From the NCBI GenBank assembly GCA_964016885.1, contig OZ024740.1, positions 374,170,001 through 374,234,000 on the forward strand: a stretch of DNA of 64,000 nt, in the 5' to 3' direction. The stretch is from Eledone cirrhosa (taxonomy: Eukaryota). The notes below the pieces were generated by a model. It was not told where the DNA came from, made no database searches, and saw only the letters and a list, made by a program, of their open reading frames with translations. This document shows, piece after piece, positions 45,729 through 61,691 of the stretch. Every line of letters begins with the position of its first letter. Within the stretch, counting starts at the first letter, position 1. Position numbers and translations under genes: made by a program.

Positions 45729-45731
<3 letters not shown>

Positions 45732-45806
45732 TTATGTAATAAACAACATGAAATAATTATTTCATTATACTCTGTTTTCAAATCCATATTACTAATTCAT
45801 AAATAA

Positions 45807-45875
45807 ATATTTTTTCTGATGAATGAAGACAGACGTACATATCTGTCTTCAAGAAACCACTGGTAAATTAAATAT
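45807..45875 (+). ncRNA. Hammerhead ribozyme motif (solo unit between microsatellites)
   Basis: CUGAUGA-a-UGAAGACAGA cguacaua UCUGUCUUCA-a-GAAA-CC acu GG-UA|; stem I weak and AT-rich. Confidence 0.6.
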
Positions 45876-45966
45876 ATACTTTATGTTGTTTACTACATAA
45901 TAAAATCTATGTAGCCCACATAGAGCACTCTCGTTTCCTTTACCTTTCCTACGGAAATACTTCATT

Positions 45967-45998
<32 letters not shown>

Positions 45999-46054
45999 TA
46001 AAAAAATAATGAATAAAACAATGAAACAGTTCCTTATATTAAACAAAAAAAAAG

Positions 46055-46207
46055 TTCATTATTTAACGATCGTTTCTAGGACATATATATGGTATAATTG
46101 GCATGCATATTCAACAGATCTATGTACAGAATTATACAAAATTATACAAACTATCAAATATAATATACATACCAACACATACATATGCCGTCTTCAGAAA
46201 TAATGAA
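46055..46207 (-). ncRNA. Hammerhead ribozyme with extended stem II (PLE 3' end)
   Basis: Reverse complement of 56011-56163. Confidence 0.78.
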
Positions 46208-46556
46208 ATATATTTATTGATAATAACAACAATTCAAAATTACAGGTCTGTTTGGGAACAGAGTTCAAATTGACCAATGAGATACACAAAAATATATCAA
46301 GAAAATACAGTTAGGTGTGTGTATATATGTAAGTAACTTCGTTCACAGATATGCATAAACATATATGTTCACATTCATACGCATGTCGGAAAAATATATG
46401 TAAATACAAAAATTCAGGGCTAATGTTTCTGTATGTTTATAATCTACAGATAAAATACACATACGTATATAAACATATATACATTCATATATACACACAT
46501 ATAGATACATTCACACACACACGCGCATATACACATAAACATACACATACCCACGA

Positions 46557-46587
<31 letters not shown>

Positions 46588-46806
46588 TATGTATATACTA
46601 TTATTATAACTATATGGATATTAAGGCGCACACATAAGCACTGCCACATATATTTACATCTAGATGCAGAAGTAGGTGAAGGGGGTCAGTAATTACTAAG
46701 GGTGTCAGACAACTGCCTATTTATAAAATGTATCTATGAATTTAGAAATAAAAAGAAATATATAAAAAAAATAAACAAGTAAAATATAAAATACACATCG
46801 ATATAC

Positions 46807-46838
<32 letters not shown>

Positions 46839-47312
46839 ACATATATATACATATATATACATATATATACATACATATATATATAGAGACACGTACATAT
46901 ACATATATAAATACATAGACACATATACATACACACATATATATATACATATATTCACAACACACATATATATATACACACATATATGTACATACACATA
47001 CACACATACATACATATATATATATATACATACACACACATATATATACACACATATATATATATATACATACACACACACATATATACACACACACACA
47101 TACATATACGTATATATACACACACATACACATATCCATGTATGTATATACACATACAACCACACGCTCACACAACTCAGACATACATAAATAAAGAGAT
47201 ATACATACACACATATACATATATATATATATAGAGAGAGATATATACATACACATAAATATACATACACACACACACACACATATACATACACATATGT
47301 ATATATATACAT

Positions 47313-47389
<77 letters not shown>

Positions 47390-47578
47390 TATATAAAAAT
47401 ATATAAATAAATAAATAAATAAATAAATACACACAGTCAGACAATTATGCACACATATATATATATACATATACATATCTCTACAAATATATATACACAT
47501 ACACACGCACACATACATATATACATACACACATACATATATAGACATATATATACACACACATATACATATATATAC

Positions 47579-47623
<45 letters not shown>

Positions 47624-48747
47624 CATACACACTTATTTACATGCGCACATATGTATTTTTATACTCACTTACAAACACCCAAACATACATACCTACTTAC
47701 ATACACATACATACATCCACGCTTACAAATACAAATAATTATAGGGGGGGGGATTAAAATTATTAGTGGGAAATAGTAAATATAGGTTTCAAGGAACATA
47801 GAATATTAATCTGCATTTAGATCATAATATCTGTTTACATAGTAGTTTCAGTATTAGGAAATGTAAGAAAAAAGGCAAAATTTTGCATTTTAATATAAGT
47901 AGACTATTAATTATAGGTTTACTAAATTAAAAATAGTTAATATATTGATTTCTAAGGTGTACACTACTCAGGTTTATAATATTTGAAGCGGAATTTTGAA
48001 GTTAAACAGTAGTAGAGTATTAATTATAGCATAACTAAATTAAAAATATTAACATTATGGTATCAATATTAGGAAATGAATTTAGTAATAGAGAAAACCA
48101 AATCAAGTATTTCATCGGTAGTAGAATATAAATTATAGGTTAACTAAATTAAAAATTATATATTAATTACTATAGTATATGTTAATTAGGTTTATAATAA
48201 TTAAAGCAGATTTTGTATTTTATCTATAGTAGAATATAATTATAGGTTAACAAAAATTAAAATTAATATATATATATATATATTTTTAATTGTAAAGAAT
48301 ATATTAATTAGGTATATATTTAAAAATTTATCTCAGTTTATGATTACATGATATTCTGCAATACATCTGTATTAGAATTTTAATTTTAAGCTAATTAAAT
48401 TAAAATTATAGGTTAACTAAATTAAAATTAATTTATAAATACATTTCTAAATTGTACATTAATTAGGTTTATAATATTAAAAAATATTTCTCTGTTATTG
48501 ATTACACGATATTTTGTTATATTTCATCTGTAAAGGAATTTTAATAAAGGTTAAATAAACTAAAATTAATCTATAAATTAATTTACAAAGTATATATTAA
48601 TTATGTTAATAATATTTAAAAGTTGTTCACAATTTATGATTACACAATATTTTTTAACCTCATCTGTAGTAGAATTTTAATTAAATTAAATTTATAGGTT
48701 AACTACATTTAAATTATATTATATATTAATTTCTAAAATATATATTA

Positions 48748-51151
48748 TTAATTAGGTTTATAATATTTAAATGTTTTTCTCAGTTTATGATTACACGATA
48801 TAATTAATTCCTGTCGCTTATTTAATAGGATATCCTTAGATTTCATTATTTCAAATAGTTCTTGGGAACATAATCTACATTCATTTCTATTATTTTGATA
48901 AGGGGTGGCTCTTTTGAGCACACTCCAGGTCATATCATATTCTATATTCTTATTTCTATAACTATTAATTTTTTCTGCTAGAGATGTTGTATTAGCCAGT
49001 GCGGCATTTTTAAAACTATGTTTGTGGGTATTAAACCTTACCTTAAAATTGTTAGAAGTAGCTCCTATATATGAGCAAATAGAATCTTTAGTTTTAGCTT
49101 TACATTTATAAACTATGTTGTTAACAAGACAATTTCCTTTTAATGGGCCGTTTGCTTTGTTTCTACAGTTACAACCTTTCGTTAATTCTGTATTTGAGGA
49201 GATATTATGGTTAGTTTGATGTATTGGTGGTATACTTATGGTATAAGCATTATAGGCACTTATATTTTGTTTTATGTTTTTGGTTGTTGAGTATGAGAAT
49301 TTAACTGTTGACCTATTTAAGATTTGATGGTATTTGTGGTTTGGCGGGAAGTTTTTCTCTAGGATATAAAAAATTTTTTTAGCAATATTATCCTTAATTT
49401 GTAAATTAAATGGAGCATTATACCAAGTAACTCGTCTATTATGGTTTCTATGTTGTTTATTATTGTTATAGGTTGTATCGTGATGTTTACTAGGAGGATT
49501 AATGTTAATGACCTCACCACGCATATTTTTAGTTAGATTTATTGATTTAGGTGTTTTATCTTGTTTATTAGGAGTTTTATTATTAATATTTATTAGAGTT
49601 GTATGATGAGTAGTTTTTTGAGAGTTACTATACTTTATATTAGAGGAGTTGTTGGTATTTTGGGGTATAGTGTGGGTGGCATTTAGGTGTGTACTTTTCG
49701 TTTGGTGTTTGTTGGTAATATTAGGTTGTATGTTTATAGTATTTTTAGTAGAAGGTATATATTCTAATCTATTTTTGTGGCCACTTCTATCTAGAGCTTC
49801 GTTATAGAAGGTCGCATTTTTATCAAATACATCTTGGTTAGACGAAAGGTTAGAAATTCTAAGTGATATATTATATGCAAGGTTTTTAAGGATAGATTTA
49901 GGGTGATTAGATTGTGAGTGTATGTAGTTAAAGTTTTGGTTGGGTTTATGGTAAGGTTGGTAGATACCCGTAGCTAAGTCTAAAGTTATATCTAAGAAAT
50001 TAACTACTTTACTTGTGTTTTCAAAAGTAATATGAAGACTATAATAGTCTTTAAGGAAAGTTCTAATAAGCTTTTTGTTTTTTTCTATTTCTGAGAGGCT
50101 AATGTTGTTGGAAAGGAGAAGACAGTCATCACGATATAAACCACCTTTAAGGTGGGGAAAGGAAGCATTTATGTTGAAAAGAAGAAAGAGGCCCACAAGA
50201 TCAGTAATTTGGGCAGAATCGCTTGAACCCATAGTAATATCAAATAGATTACTATATGTGTTTCTGGTCCAGTATTCATTCTGAAATTCAACAAGTGTTA
50301 GTCTAGCATGTGTAATACTATTAATGTCATCCAAAGTTAAGTTAGATCTATTTGTAGCAAATATCAAAGCTTTGTTCAGGAGTATAGGTGATATAGAAGA
50401 GTAGTAATTATCTATATCAAATTGTAGAAATGAAGCAGAAGATTTACATCTAATATATTTAAACCAGTTAATTACCTGGAAAGTGTTTTCCCAGAGTGGT
50501 AAATTAACATGTTTTCTTAATTGTGGGATGACTCTATCCTAAATTTTTTTGCTAATTATTCCAATATCAGATTTGGAGGGACATATAAGTCTTATAGAAG
50601 GATTTGAGTTAAAGTTTGATTTATGATCCTTCAGATTGAAGTGTGGTCTTTTCAATACCAAAGGTTCAGTTCTATCTTCAATGTTTAGATTTTTTACTAT
50701 GTTGTGTGTTTTGTTGTTGATGTTGGTGAGTGACGCATTATTAGATTTTTTATAATTTTTCCTGAGTTCTTTATATATGAACTCATTATAATCTTCAATA
50801 TCCATGTGATACAAGTTTCCAGTTTTGTCCGAGTGGACATGGATTTTTTTAGACTTTTTTTAGGTCCTTTTGAAAGACAGATTTATACTTCTTAAATTTG
50901 AGGTGTTTAATTAAATTAAAAAGGTCTTTCTCAAAGTCTTCAAGTAGAGAGTTGTGTGGTGAATCTTGTAAGTATTGAAATCATACATATATTTCCCATC
51001 TGCATATTTAGATTTTTTTATCGAAGTGGTAGGCCCTCCATCTAACTCTTCTGATAAATTTGTTAGTTTTCTGTATCATAAGGAGTAAGAAGTCATCCTT
51101 AGAAGGTATTGGTATATTCTTTAAAGAGGTTCCCAAGTATTGTTTTTCCAT
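48748..51151 (-). pseudogene. Penelope-like RT + GIY-YIG endonuclease (premature TAG at 50539-50541, N-terminal frameshifts)
   Basis: MEKQYLGTSLKNIPIPS, LKDHK.NF, RLICPSKS, QFDIDNYY, FDITMGS, GLYRDD, VNFLDITL, YHKPN, WYNAPF, CNC.....(C)PL.GNC, IVY..YIGAT..FK.R..H. Confidence 0.9.
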
Positions 51152-51245
51152 TGTGATATGGATAATGGACAATAGAAAGAGCTCAACTAAATGTATATGA
51201 GGTTATAACATCATACATATATATGTATATACATAAATATAAAAA

Positions 51246-52032
<787 letters not shown>

Positions 52033-54705
52033 ATATAGTAATCTATTTGATATTACTATGGGTTCAAGCGATTCTGCCCAAATTACTGATCTTGTGGGCC
52101 TCTTTCTTCTTTTCAACATAAATGCTTCCTTTCCCCACCTTAAAGGTGGTTTATATCGTGATGACTGTCTTCTCCTTTCCAACAACCTTAGCCTCTCAGA
52201 AATAGAAAAAAACAAAAAGCTTATTAGAACTTTCCTTAAAGACTATTATAGTCTTCATATTACTTTTGAAAACACAAGTAAAGTAGTTAATTTCATAGAT
52301 ATAACTTTAGACTTAGCTACGGGTATCTACCAACCTTACCATAAACCCAACCAAAACTTACACTACATACACTCACAATCTAATCACCCTAAATCTATCC
52401 TTAAAAACCTTGCATATAATATATCACTTAGAATTTCTAACCTTTCGTCTAACCAAGATGTATTTGATAAAAATGCGACCTTCTATAACGAAGCCCTAGA
52501 TAGAAGTGGCCACAAAATAGATTAGAATATATACCTTCTACTAAAAATACTATAAACATACAACCTAATATTACCAACAAACACGAAATGAAAAGTACAC
52601 ACCTAAATGCCACTCAAGCTATACCCCAAAATACCAACAACTCCTCTAATATAAAGTATAGTAACTCTCAAAAAACTACTCATCATACAACTCTAATAAA
52701 TGTTAATAATAAAATGTTAATAATAAAACTCCTAATAAACAAGATAAAACACCTAAATCAATAAATCTAACTAAAAATATGCGTGGTGAGGTCATTAACA
52801 TTAATCCTCCTAGTAAACATCACGATACAACCTATAACAATAATAAACAACATAGAAACCGTAATAGACGAGTTACTTGGTATAATGCTCCATTTAATTT
52901 ACAAATTAAGGATAATATTGCTAAAAAAAATTTTTATATCCTAGAGAAAAACTTCCCGCCAAACCACAGATACCATCAAATCTTAAATAGGTCAACAGTT
53001 AAATTCTCATACTCAACAACCAAAAACATAAAACAAAATATAAGTGCCTATAATGCATATAAATGTAAAAATACCATAAGTATACCACCAATACATCAAA
53101 CTAACCATAATATCTCCTCAAATACAGAATTAACGAAAGGTTGTAACTAGAAACAAAGCAAACTGCCCATTAAAAGGAAATTGTCTTGTTAACAACATAG
53201 TTTATAAATGTAAAGTTAAAACTAAAGATTCTATTTGCTCATATATAGGAGCTACTTCTAAAAATTGTAAGGTAAGGTTTAATACCCACAAACATAGTTT
53301 TAAAAATGCCGCACTAGCTAATACAACCTCTCTAGCAGAACAAATTAATAGTTATAGAAATAAGAATATAGAATATGATATGACCTGGAGTGTGCTTAAA
53401 AGAGCCACCCCTTATCAAAATAATAGAAATGAATGTAGATTATGTTCCCAAGAACTATTTGAAATAATGAAATCTAAGGATATCCTATTAAATAAGCGAC
53501 AGGAATTAATTATATCGTGTAATCATAAACTGAGAAAAACATTTAAATATTATAAACCTAATTAATAATATATATTTTAGAAATTAATATATAATTTAAT
53601 TTAAATGTAGTTAACCTATAAATTTAATTTAATTAAAATTCTACTACAGATGAGATTAACAAATATTGTGTAATTCTAAATTGTGAAAAACTTTTAAATA
53701 TTATTAACATAATTAATATATACTTTGTAAATTAATTTATAGATTAATTTTAGTTTATTTAACCTTTATTAAAATTCCTTTACAGATGAAATATAACAAA
53801 ATATCGTGTAATCAATAACATAGAAATATTTTTTAATATTATAAACCTAATTAATGTAAAATTTAGAAATGTATTTATGAATTAATTTTAATTTAGTTAA
53901 CCTATAATTTTAATTTAATTAGCTTAGAATTAAAATTCTAATACAGATGTATTGCAGAATATCATGTAATCATAAACTGAGATAAATTTTTAAATATATA
54001 CCTAATTAATATATTCTTTACAATTAAAAATATATATATATATATATTAATTTTAATTTTTGTTAACCTATAATTATATTCTACTATAGATAAAATACAA
54101 AATCTGCTTTAATTATTATAAACCTAATTAACATATACTATAGAAATTAATATATAATTTTTAATTTAGTTAACCTATAATTTATATTCTACTACCGATA
54201 AAATACTTGATTTGGTTTTCCCTATTACTAAATTCATTTCCTAATATTGATACCATAATGTTAATATTTTTAATTTAGTTATGCTATAATTAATACTCTA
54301 CTACTGTTCAACTTCAAAATTCCGCTTCAAATATTATAAACCTGAGTAGTATACACCTTAGAAATCAATATACTATTTTTATATCAATAACTATTTTTAA
54401 TTTAGTCAACCTATAATTAATAGTCTACTTATATTAAAATGTATAATTTTGCCTTCTTTCTTACATTTCCTAATACTGAAACTACTATGTAAACAGATAT
54501 TATGATCTAAATGCAGATTAATATTCTATGTTCCTTGAAACCTATATTTACTATTTCCCACTAATAATTTTAACCCCTCCCCCCCTATAATTATTTGTTT
54601 TTGTAAGCGTGGATGTATGTATGTGTATGTAAGTAGGTATGTATGTTTGGGTGTTTGTAAGTGAGTATAAAAATACATATGTGCGCATGTAAATAAGTGT
54701 GTATG

Positions 54706-54744
<39 letters not shown>

Positions 54745-54923
54745 ATATATGTATATATATGTATATGTGTGTGTATATATATGTCTATATATGTATGTGT
54801 GTATGTATATATGTATGTGTGCGTGTGTATGTGTATATATATTTGTAGAGATGTGTGTAAGTATATATATATATGTGTGCATAATTGTCTGACTGTGTGT
54901 ATTTATTTATTTATTTATTTATA

Positions 54924-54982
<59 letters not shown>

Positions 54983-55013
54983 GTGTATGTGTATGTGTGT
55001 GTGTGTGTATGTA

Positions 55014-55052
<39 letters not shown>

Positions 55053-56226
55053 GTGTGTATGTATATCTCTTTATTTATGTATGTCTGAGTTGTGTGAGCG
55101 TGTGGTGGTATGTGTATATACATACATGGATATGTGTATGTGTGTGTATATATACGTATATGTATGTGTGTGTGTGTGTATATATATGTGTGTGTGTGTA
55201 TATATATATATGTATGTATGTGTGTATGTGTATGTACATATATGTGTGTATATATATATATGTGTGTTGTGAATATATGTATATATATATATGTGTATAT
55301 GTATATGTGTCTATATATTTATATATGTATATGTATGTGTCTCTCTATATATATGTATGTATATATATGTATATATATGTATATGTATATATATATATAT
55401 GTGTATATCGATGTGTATTTTATATTTTACTTGTTTATTTTTTTAATATATTTCTTTTTATTTCTAAACTTATAGATACATTTTATAAATAGGCAGTTGT
55501 CTGACACCCTTAGTAATTACTGACCCCGTTCACCTACTTCTGCATCTAGATGTAAATATATGTGGCAGTGCTTATGTGTGCGCCTTAATATCCATATAGT
55601 TATAATAATAGTTTATACATATGTGTGTGTGTGTGTGTGGGTGTGTGTGTGTGTGTATGTTCGTGGGTACGTGTATGTTTATGTGTATATGCGTGTGTGT
55701 GTGTGAATGTATCTATATGTGTGTATATATGAATGTATATATGTTTATATACGTATGTGTATTTTATCTGTAGATTATAAACATACAGAGACATTAGCCC
55801 TGAATTTTTGTATTTACATACATTTTTTCGACATGCGTATGTATGTGAACATATATTTTTATGCATATCTGTGAACGAAGTTACTTACATATATACACAC
55901 ACCTAACTGTGTTTTTCTTGATATATTTTTGTGTATCTCATTGGTCAATTTGAACTCTGTTCCCAAACAGACCTGTAATTTTGAATTGTTGTTATTATCA
56001 ATAAATATATTTCATTATTTCTGAAGACGGCATATGTATGTGTTGGTATGTATATTATATTTGATAGTTTGTATAATTTTGTATAATTTTGTACATAGAT
56101 CTGTTGAATATGCATGCCAATTATAACACATATATGTCCTAGAAACGATCGTTAAATAATGAACTTTTTTTGTTTAATATAAGGAACTGTTTCATTGTTT
56201 TATTCATTATTTTTTTAATATTTTAT
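52033..56226 (+). mobile_element. 5'-truncated inverted copy of the Naiad-type PLE
   Basis: ORF fragments 52058..52525, 52779..53150 and 53380..53565, then the same 3' region and hammerhead. Confidence 0.87.
56011..56163 (+). ncRNA. Hammerhead ribozyme with extended stem II
   Basis: 10-bp stem I UUCAUUAUUU/AAAUAAUGAA, CUGAAGA, ~110-nt stem II (UUGGUAUGUAUAUU/AAUAUGCAUGCCAA), GAAA, palindromic stem III ACGAUCGU, cleavage triplet GUU. Confidence 0.8.
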
Positions 56227-58200: not shown

Positions 58201-58618
58201 TATGTACACGTACATACATATATGTATACAGACGTACACTAGTATGTATATACTTACATACATGCCCACACATATGTACGTATGGGTTTACCGAACATAT
58301 ATTATAATGATCGTTTTGTTTGTAAACAAACACCCCGAATTATTAGCCGTACAGTGTTCGGCAACAACGTTGCCCATTTGTGCAACACTCACAAAAGAAC
58401 GATGAACTAGTTTCTAGCTTATTAACTGTGATCAGCACATTCCAGTCAGTTGTTTGAAAGTTTGAAAGTATATACTTTCCCTATGCATATTATCGGCTAA
58501 GCAGCCGAATTTGCATATCGAGTGAGTTAGTCGGCCGGTTGTTCCCGAAAACGATCAATGGAAAAAATGAAATTTTATTTCTCACTCCTAGTACGGCTGA
58601 TACTTAAATATACATGCA
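58200..58618 (+). repeat. Unclassified ~428-bp repeat family, one unit
   Basis: Homologous to 60283-60432, 60432-60658 (inverted) and 61020-61695. Confidence 0.7.
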
Positions 58619-58796
58619 TATATATATATATATATATATTGGAATAAATGCTCTGAAATAGCGATATATATGTGAATATAGACATAGAATATTCGAAAAT
58701 ATTCTGTATGTTTATAATAAACATTTTGAAGACCTAATCGCTATAGAATAGAATACGTCACGTATTACAATTAGATTCTCGATAAAAGCAAGGGAA

Positions 58797-58839
58797 GTAA
58801 TCTACGCGTTTCATTCTTATTAGAAATCTTCAGGACTAC
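58797..58839 (-). ncRNA. Minimal type I hammerhead ribozyme
   Basis: Reverse complement of 59962-60004. Confidence 0.85.
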
Positions 58840-59106
58840 ATATCCAGTGCTTTTATCGAGAATGACACAGCTAGAGACTTATAGAATACTTAGCTGTGTA
58901 CATGAACTGGTTTGAAAGAGCGGTTGCCGGTCCGGCAGAAATTAGAAATTGGAATAAATGCTCTGAAATAGCGATATATATGTGAATATAGACATAGAAT
59001 ATTCGAAAATATTCTGTATGTTTATAATAAACATTTTGAAGACCTAATCGCTATAGAATAGAATACGTCACGTATTACAATTAGATTCTCGATAAAAGCA
59101 AGGGAA

Positions 59107-59149
59107 GTAATCTACGCGTTTCATTCTTATTAGAAATCTTCAGGACTAC
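59107..59149 (-). ncRNA. Minimal type I hammerhead ribozyme
   Basis: Reverse complement of 59652-59694. Confidence 0.85.
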
Positions 59150-59651
59150 ATATCCAGTGCTTTTATCGAGAATGACACAGCTAGAGACTTATAGAATACT
59201 TAGCTGTGTACATGAACTGGTTTGAAAGAGCGGTTGCCGGTCCGGCAGAAATTAGAAATTGGAATAAATGCTCTGAAATAGCGATATATATGTGAATATA
59301 GACATAGAATATTCGAAAATATTCTGTATGTTTATAATAAACATTTTGAAGACCTAATCGCTATAGAATAGAATACGTCACGTATTACAATTAGATTCTC
59401 GAGAATCTAATTGTAATACGTGACGTATTCTATTCTATAGCGATTAGGTCTTCAAAATGTTTATTATAAACATACAGAATATTTTCGAATATTCTATGTC
59501 TATATTCACATATATATCGCTATTTCAGAGCATTTATTCCAATTTCTAATTTCTGCCGGACCGGCAACCGCTCTTTCAAACCAGTTCATGTACACAGCTA
59601 AGTATTCTATAAGTCTCTAGCTGTGTCATTCTCGATAAAAGCACTGGATAT

Positions 59652-59694
59652 GTAGTCCTGAAGATTTCTAATAAGAATGAAACGCGTAGATTAC
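59652..59694 (+). ncRNA. Minimal type I hammerhead ribozyme
   Basis: GUAGUC-CUGAAGA-u-UUCU aaua AGAA-u-GAAA-CGCG-UA|GAUUAC; all core nucleotides present, 6-bp stem I, palindromic stem III. Confidence 0.88.
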
Positions 59695-59961
59695 TTCCCT
59701 TGCTTTTATCGAGAATCTAATTGTAATACGTGACGTATTCTATTCTATAGCGATTAGGTCTTCAAAATGTTTATTATAAACATACAGAATATTTTCGAAT
59801 ATTCTATGTCTATATTCACATATATATCGCTATTTCAGAGCATTTATTCCAATTTCTAATTTCTGCCGGACCGGCAACCGCTCTTTCAAACCAGTTCATG
59901 TACACAGCTAAGTATTCTATAAGTCTCTAGCTGTGTCATTCTCGATAAAAGCACTGGATAT

Positions 59962-60004
59962 GTAGTCCTGAAGATTTCTAATAAGAATGAAACGCGTAGA
60001 TTAC
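59962..60004 (+). ncRNA. Minimal type I hammerhead ribozyme
   Basis: Identical to 59652-59694, 310 nt downstream. Confidence 0.88.
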
Positions 60005-60149
60005 TTCCCTTGCTTTTATCGAGAATCTAATTGTAATACGTGACGTATTCTATTCTATAGCGATTAGGTCTTCAAAATGTTTATTATAAACATACAGAAT
60101 ATTTTCGAATATTCTATGTCTATATTCATATATATATATATATATATGT

Positions 60150-60690
<541 letters not shown>

Positions 60691-61019: not shown

Positions 61020-61691
61020 ATATACGTATGTATACGTACATACATATATGTAATCAGACGTACGGTAGTATATATATATACATACATGCACACATATATA
61101 TATATATATGTACGTATGGATTCACCAAACATTTATTACAATGCTCGGTGTGTTTGTAAACAAACATACCGTATTAAGCCGTAGTGTCCAGCAACCACCG
61201 TTGCTCGTTTGATCAACACTGACAAAGGACCTCTGTACTAGTTTCAAGCTTGTTAGCTATCCTCAACAACGTATACCTTCCTGCCAGATAGTTGAACGTC
61301 CGAAAGTATATACTTTCCTTATGCATATTAACGTCTGAGTAGCCCAATTTGCATATCGAGTGGGTTAATCGGCCGGGTGCACTGAAAACGATAAACCGAA
61401 AAAATGAAACGAAATTTCATTTCCCATTCTTAGTACGGCTGTTACTTAAATATAAGTATGTATACGTACATACATATATGTATACATACGTACAGTAGTA
61501 TGTATATATATATACATACATGCACACATATATATATGTACGTATGGATTCACCAAACATTTATTATAATGCTCTTTTATTTTTGTAAACAAACATCCCG
61601 TATTAATCCGTAGTGTCCAGCAACCACCGTTGCTCGTTTGTGCACCGAAAACAATAAACGGAAAAAAATAAAACGAAATTTCATTTCCACT

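Follow-up and report, generated by a model that had tools for sequence, protein, structure and literature searches.

Animal non-LTR retrozymes are described in the main texts of the relevant reports as non-coding tandem repeats with a unit of 150-450 bp and less than 50% GC, in which every unit carries one canonical type I hammerhead ribozyme and at least two complete ribozymes follow each other (PMC7229834; bioRxiv 10.64898/2026.07.22.740005). According to the same accounts, the monomer is highly paired, the ribozyme stays free to fold, and Penelope-like elements (PLEs) are present in the genome. The canonical metazoan type I hammerhead has been defined by a helix I of 6 bp, a helix II of 4 bp, and a helix III of 1-2 bp with a palindromic loop, and the minimal hammerhead of PLEs by the absence of helix III, a helix I of 4-5 bp, a helix II of 7-8 bp, and G10.1-C11.1 (PMC4209133). 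The axolotl motifs HHR_Amex1 and HHR_Amex2, which stem from units of 330-350 nt, cleave poorly as monomers and better as dimers (PMC7229834), and one of nine predicted Xenopus retrozyme dimers was cleaved in vitro (Li, Clavereau and Pollet, 2026 preprint). Minimal hammerheads located 100-700 bp apart on opposite strands have also been mentioned (Cervera, 2014). Two of these texts treat the identity of the retrotransposon that mobilises animal retrozymes, and the way it does so, as an open question (PMC7229834; 2026 preprint), and a PLE origin of retrozymes has been argued from co-occurrence and terminal-repeat homology (2026 preprint).

PLEs leave characteristic insertions. Partial tandems, an inverted 5'-truncated copy at the head, a tail of 30-40 bp at one end, and a bias toward (TA)n targets have been reported (PMC8557442; Craig et al., 2021), and the copies are mostly joined head to head, the joints being palindromic (PMC3846280; Arkhipova et al., 2013). 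In work with a purified PLE protein, both strands of the target were cut and extended, with starts at two internal RNA sites whose spacing corresponds to the 30-40-bp tail, and priming occurred in vitro without homology to the target (PMC11167929; Frangieh et al., 2024). In the supplementary table of Hydra-clade PLEs, a sense hammerhead lies, by subtraction, about 90-210 nt from the 3' end in 23 of the 24 rows with a 3' motif (PMC8557442 supplement).

Here, we analysed a 64,000-nt stretch of DNA, hereafter the window, in which a 310-nt unit bearing a hammerhead is repeated in two inverted arrays. We consider it likely that the unit represents a young non-LTR retrozyme family, inserted very recently at this locus by the reverse transcriptase and GIY-YIG endonuclease of a PLE. 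The retrozyme class is known, and this member adds an informative insertion footprint, which was read at one locus. The literature searched, comprising the main texts of the retrozyme papers, held no description of inverted, tailed retrozyme insertions, and a literature search for the helix III string of the ribozyme together with the word hammerhead returned no related paper.

Two inverted arrays of a 310-nt unit

The two arrays are mutual reverse complements arranged head to head, with the sense of the ribozyme pointing outward in both. The left arm (58638..59400, minus strand) is 763 nt long and holds 2.46 copies of the unit, and the right arm (59401..60128, plus strand) matches exactly over 728 nt, or 2.35-2.38 copies, reaching 737 nt (to 60137) if one mismatch is allowed. 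Tandem Repeats Finder reported the same arrangement as period-310 arrays at 58638-59402 (2.5 copies, 100%) and 59399-60137 (2.4 copies, 99%). Together with self-comparison, it confirmed the 310-nt period claimed in the preliminary description of this DNA, and all unit copies in both arms are identical, as had also been claimed. What had been taken for a single tandem array at 58639-60128 proved instead to be two inverted arrays that form a palindrome with four hammerheads. The perfect palindrome spans 58673-60128 (1,456 bp, arms of 728 nt each, centre 59400|59401) and is confined to the element, as the flanking DNA is not mirrored. The arms meet without a spacer at a self-complementary TCGA (59399..59402), located 23 nt downstream of a predicted ribozyme cut and enclosed by an imperfect 10-nt palindrome in which four of the five innermost pairs are formed.

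In the left arm, the periodic unit continues beyond the palindrome down to 58638, leaving at the 3' end of this arm only a tail-like overhang (58638..58672, minus strand) of 26-35 nt, the length of which varies with the placement of the right end inside its (AT) tract. Both array 3' ends enter (TA)n and overlap it by 2-9 nt. The left target tract, (AT)11 at 58618..58639, has its final 2 nt in common with the end of the element, and the right one, (AT)9 at 60128..60145, overlaps an internal (AT)4 of the unit. Because both flanks are (TA)n, a target-site duplication, which in retrozymes exceeds 4 bp when present, is unreadable at this insertion. BLAST detected no further copy of the unit in the window outside the arrays. 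The surroundings hold a non-coding repeat family of about 350 nt (58270-58620, 60154-60660, 61106-61454 and 61534-61644), 78-94% alike, whose members flank the array in both orientations and are edged by AT-rich microsatellites.

Each arm contains one complete monomer from cut to cut, at 59689..59998 on the plus strand (310 nt, 66% A+T) and, identical in sequence, at 58803..59112 on the minus strand. Each strand bears two type I hammerheads. Those of the right arm, at 59652..59694 and 59962..60004 (cores at 59658 and 59968), have predicted cuts after 59688 and 59998, which would release a monomer of exactly 310 nt, as previously proposed. Those of the left arm, at 59107..59149 and 58797..58839 (cores at 59143 and 58833), have predicted cuts between 59113 and 59112 and between 58803 and 58802. 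Every hammerhead consists of a 6-bp helix I, a UAU bulge followed by further pairing, the CUGAAGA core, a U·U pair and a 4-bp helix II closed by an AAUA loop, then GAAA and the helix III ACGCGU, and the predicted cut follows GUA. One such hammerhead per unit with this helix III had been claimed and is confirmed. A further helix of 16 bp (59628..59716 on the plus strand, 59628-59643 pairing with 59701-59716) extends helix I and keeps the ribozyme closed, and the corresponding fold has a z-score of -6.4, with none of 200 shuffles as good.

The motif has the features of a type I hammerhead, namely CUGANGA, GAAA, the UH core, three helices, and an open helix I. Its helix dimensions (6, 4, and 1-2 bp with a palindromic loop) are the canonical metazoan ones apart from an additional U·U at the helix II base, and fall outside those of the minimal PLE hammerhead, which we rejected as a classification; the word minimal in the preliminary description therefore does not hold under the definitions given in PMC4209133. 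Our hammerhead descriptor matched 2 of 20,000 dinucleotide shuffles of the unit, and matched neither the rest of the window nor any of 30 shuffles of that remainder. It also revealed no antisense ribozyme in the unit, so that the hammerhead has a single polarity. A search of Rfam, proposed earlier as a check, gave no match in the window at the gathering score. The best match and the sole hammerhead model listed was Hammerhead_HH9 (17 bits against a gathering score of 52, E 0.14), aligned over its full length with all core letters matched. The sub-gathering score lowers membership of an Rfam family, not the identity as a hammerhead. The 147 sub-gathering matches between 45.6 and 64 kb (E up to 1) were set aside as chance, since nearly all are microRNA models placed on AT/GT repeats or in the middle of the palindrome, and none is a hammerhead.

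The unit is non-coding, as had been stated: its longest ATG ORF has 30 aa, and an ORF for reverse transcriptase and GIY-YIG, as in an autonomous PLE, is absent. Its reputed richness in structure was upheld, the monomer folding with a z-score of -4.9 and none of 100 shuffles folding equally well. All five inverted repeats named in the preliminary description are exact reverse complements. Four of them are mostly above 0.9 probable in the circular ensemble, but ATAGCGAT/ATCGCTAT reaches only 0.33-0.41. Within the ribozyme, the folding ensemble holds helix I as stable (0.78-1.0), helix II as weak (0.15-0.17), and helix III at 0.0. A forced double-hammerhead fold of the right arm has -184.5 kcal/mol compared with -177.5 kcal/mol for two monomer folds, and both active folds lie above the minimum-energy fold of -190.9 kcal/mol. 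A dimer fold through the palindromic stem III, of the kind suggested earlier, is plausible on the modelled energies, about 7 kcal/mol better than two monomer folds; the predicted cleavage and circle formation are tempered by the weak helix II and by the single success among the nine Xenopus dimers mentioned above. The modelled folding fits a predicted activity that is modest and dimer-dependent, as in the axolotl motifs.

Compared with the animal retrozymes, the unit resembles them in each of the features listed above, having 310 bp, 34% GC, and two hammerheads per arm, and this anatomy supports the retrozyme-like identity and the youth proposed for it. The head-to-head palindromic arrays, the tail-like overhang, and the (TA)n ends set the locus apart from the retrozymes in the main texts of those reports. 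Its very short palindromic helix III is like that of HHR_Amex1, and the U·U mismatch at the base of helix II like that of HHR_Amex2 (PMC7229834). Unlike either axolotl motif, that of the unit unites both weak features; the likeness is one of motif features. A read-through transcript of the whole locus folds as a hairpin with 98% of its bases paired, and this locus may accordingly be a poor source of circles, as the modelled read-through is a 730-bp hairpin. Overall, the preliminary description was borne out in part, for the unit and its hammerhead; it overlooked that the arrays are inverted, that one of them has a tail-like overhang, that (TA)n was the target, and that a PLE lies nearby.

The family in public sequencing runs

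According to an index of public sequencing runs, 20 runs from 17 studies with 18 organism labels hold 0.57-0.93 of the sampled words of the unit, none of them recorded as RNA. Four of the 24 listed runs (X1, X13, X20 and X24) were compared in detail with one unit, three of them among the 20 holders. In run X1, 639 contigs matched the unit (347, 149, 91, and 52 in falling identity bands) and showed several different flanks, so the family is multi-copy and dispersed, as the preliminary description had expected. The summed word depth in X1 was about 300,000-640,000 across most of the unit; it gives no copy number, and fits a very abundant, variable family. The other three runs come from other organisms. 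X13 and X20 yielded a single contig each, at low depth (9.6 and 3.3), and every difference listed for these contigs is also present in X1. The contig from X20 corresponds to precisely one unit, opened at the sole GANTC site that the unit contains. These two matches look to us like traces of DNA or relatives at low coverage, and we do not claim horizontal transfer from them. X24 gave 0 reads out of 12.8 million and counts as no test.

Five differences from the window were listed in X1 when variants were counted at 3% of depth or more: 59662 A>T (80% of depth, core position 7), 59665 T>A (17%, at position 10.1), 59672 T>C (68%) and 59673 A>G (21%), both in loop 2, and 59810 C>T (5%). None of them touches an invariant catalytic base. 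The change at 59665 closes the U·U pair and lets helix II fold at 0.85-0.93. Four of these five common variants fall within the 31 nt of the ribozyme core, each at a position that tolerates change, and no part of the unit varies more in X1 than the ribozyme. At two sites, the letter of the window is the minority in X1 (about 20% and 32% of depth), and it is present in all four ribozymes. That both arms carry the same minority haplotype points to a single template.

The ends of the unit could also be compared. Among the ends listed, ten contigs from X1 exit the unit into (TA)n at 59827, the equivalent of the right-arm end, which makes the (AT)4 tract of the unit a recurrent 3' end of the family in this run. 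One contig exits into (TA)n at 59858, near the left-arm end (equivalent to 59853). The two exits listed in X1 lie 31 nt apart, the second coming from that one contig. Another contig enters the unit from a short AT tract at 59718. We discounted the loose ends at 59691, 59719, and 59842 as minor indel variants close to the ends of contigs, and the joint 59688-59734 as uninformative, being found in a single contig. Among the pattern matches from other sources, none of seven (six loci on metagenome contigs and one on viral contigs) could be aligned as a relative of the unit. Hammerhead-like cores sharing the helix III ACGCGU were observed at three of the metagenome loci, L003 (1331-1367), L005 (246-280), and L006 (3001-3038), and are unrelated to the unit.

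A Penelope-like element in the window

A broken Hydra-clade-like PLE occupies 45990..56226, at 2.4-13 kb from the array, and forms context outside the insertion. Its arms are inverted, the same layout as in the array, and 93% identical. Its ORF runs from about 51152 to 48748 on the minus strand, and the encoded protein has reverse transcriptase motifs and a nuclease-like C-terminal part. A 5'-truncated copy in inverted orientation lies at 52032-56226 on the plus strand. The element represents a candidate mobiliser family. Pfam recognised no domain in the PLE protein at E 0.001. The assignment rests on motifs and on the 8 of 22 homologues of the ORF protein that were aligned with it, an alignment showing RxRW, DKT, GLYRDD, SNHP, and CxCx5CP. 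These motifs agree with the description of the Hydra clade (PMC8557442) and with the Hydra ORFs in its supplement. The N-terminal motifs of the window's copy sit in broken frames. An inverted 3' piece of the PLE was observed at about 51200-52038. The 3' untranslated region is microsatellite-rich and about 2.7 kb long. The left 3' end of the element is in (TA)n, and the right one continues for 135 nt before (TA)n.

Both arms of the PLE bear a type I hammerhead about 75 nt from the 3' end, at 56011-56163 on the plus strand and 46055-46207 on the minus strand. It combines a 10-bp helix I, a 114-nt helix II, and the palindromic helix III ACGAUCGU, and energy minimisation yields the hammerhead fold (z -3.9). 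Descriptors of the standard type, with a short helix II, would miss it. A 238-nt piece at 45729-45966 on the plus strand, between microsatellite tracts, holds a hammerhead-like motif at 45816 with a 10-bp helix II, a weak helix I, and the helix III ACCA-C-UGGU found in a published Hydra element. The motif lies 101 nt before the end of the piece, which has no homology to the 310-nt unit and is probably the solo 3' end of another Hydra-type PLE. The first part of the window (1-43300) is a cluster of APE-type LINEs with endonuclease, reverse transcriptase, zf-RVT, and a Gln/Asn/His-rich ORF1, in copies 83-99% identical. Their mutual joining at (ATT)n suggests targeted insertion into their own tails. 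A LINE cluster of this kind points to a repeat-rich eukaryotic host, most likely an animal.

The unit and the window's PLE have one exact match of 17 nt in the same sense (46427-46443; 16 nt in the right PLE arm, 55774-55789). Such a match arose on the same strand in 3 of 2,000 shuffles, was found after the fact, and stands in different structural contexts. No homology between the two extends beyond these 17 nt, and the window's PLE is a candidate for the mobiliser family rather than a demonstrated parent.

The insertion itself resembles those of PLEs in its (TA)n target, partial tandems, inverted 5'-truncated head, and palindromic junction, both of the latter being present in the window. Its tail-like overhang of 26-35 nt compares with the published 30-40 bp (PMC8557442, PMC11167929). 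The 3' ends lie 130-165 nt past the cut, within the range of Hydra-clade terminal repeats (PMC8557442 supplement), and the hammerhead lies 196 and 222 nt from the 3' ends. The U·U at the base of helix II recurs in 14 of 26 Hydra rows, counted by eye in the same supplement. Unlike Hydra-clade PLEs, the unit has no ORF, and the repeat consists of an entire circle-like unit in several copies rather than of a terminal repeat attached to an ORF. Its helix III of 2 bp also differs from the 3-4 bp in the Hydra table (PMC8557442).

Proposed insertion of the arrays by a PLE

Building on these comparisons, we lean moderately toward a model in which retrozymes are inserted by PLEs from two fixed internal starts, with this family showing the full footprint, that is, a palindrome made from one RNA, a tail, and (TA)n, and with a Hydra-clade PLE acting in trans. 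A source array would be transcribed, and the multimeric transcripts would cleave themselves, probably as double hammerheads through the ACGCGU palindrome; by analogy with the described retrozymes, the monomers may then be closed into circles by a host ligase (PMC7229834). The PLE protein would capture the RNA, cut (TA)n and prime there. Reverse transcription would begin at two positions inside the RNA, separated by about 30 nt and lying 130-165 nt past the ribozyme cut, and would thereby produce the tail. One feature is at variance with the PLE reading: priming in vitro proceeds without homology to the target (Frangieh et al., PMC11167929), whereas both ends here overlap (TA)n by several nucleotides.

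For the mirror arm, we speculated two possible scenarios. The cDNA could fold back at the imperfect palindrome around TCGA, or two cDNAs primed on both target ends could anneal at the TCGA palindrome. We judge fold-back to have somewhat better than even chances and favour it because the arms are near-equal and carry one haplotype; annealing of two cDNAs is appreciably less probable, and such twin priming retains some probability because the right end sits at a recurrent start site. The template would be one RNA, namely either a circle copied over about 2.4 rounds or a linear multimer with a ribozyme-cut 5' end. The linear, ribozyme-cut template is mildly favoured because the junction lies 23 nt from the cut.

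Explanations other than insertion by a PLE were also considered. The arrays could be a satellite formed at the DNA level, in which a terminal-repeat fragment of a PLE was tandemly amplified by recombination, the palindrome resulted from DNA repair, and the ribozyme is a passenger giving rise to no circRNA. Local tandem amplification of PLE termini has been proposed as one route (Li et al.), helices II and III are weak in the window copy, and the very high summed depth in X1 is equally compatible with a satellite. We nevertheless regard this origin as unlikely, since unequal crossover is not expected to give a short array with (TA)n 3' ends, a tail-sized difference, and a 3' end common to ten other contigs. 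Moreover, the common variants avoid the invariant catalytic bases, and the unit folds far better than its shuffles. It is also rather improbable that the retrozyme is real and its mirror arm is an artefact from a fold-back read, an amplification chimera, or a misassembly. The mirror ends at the borders of the element and leaves the flanks unmirrored, the arms differ in length with the shorter one stopping at the site used by the ten independent contigs, and the neighbouring PLE has an older inverted layout. Fold-back chimeras do yield spacer-free perfect palindromes with identical arms, as in the 1,456 bp found here, and, as a weak further point, no strand-change joint at the palindrome junction was among the joints listed in the four runs with a single unit as reference. 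The palindromic junction is at present known from the window sequence and is unconfirmed in reads.

Mobilisation by the APE-type LINEs, with the inversion as an outcome of L1-style twin priming, appears very improbable. Near-identical LINE copies fill the first 43 kb, two with an uninterrupted endonuclease-reverse transcriptase frame of 1,195 aa, but they end in (ATT)n, not (TA)n, and the 310-nt unit has neither a poly(A) nor an (ATT)n tail. In twin priming of the L1 style, the inverted portion is a 5' part that does not overlap the rest, and the 3' end is not known to be duplicated, whereas the 3' end is present in both arms here. We give hardly any credence to an infectious or horizontally spreading viroid-like circle, secondarily integrated, even though words of the unit turned up across the studies and organism labels of the index. 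Against it stand the single low-depth contigs of X13 and X20 with no listed difference outside the variation of X1, the GANTC-opened unit in X20, which resembles a restriction-ligation chimera of tandem DNA, the absence of RNA from the recorded types of the listed holders, the single polarity of the ribozyme together with the genomic DNA copy in the window, and the lack of a relative among the seven metagenome and viral pattern matches.

Insertion by a PLE thus remains our preferred reading. The locus offers a predicted 310-nt RNA of a young, abundant family, along with two predicted start sites of reverse transcription, the target and junction of an insertion, and a candidate family for the enzyme. 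It separates the template models, circle versus ribozyme-cut linear multimer, as well as the inversion models, fold-back versus twin priming. If the reading is true, it would provide evidence at the integration site for the partnership between retrozymes and PLEs, and palindromic loci of this kind could double as hairpin sources that silence the family.
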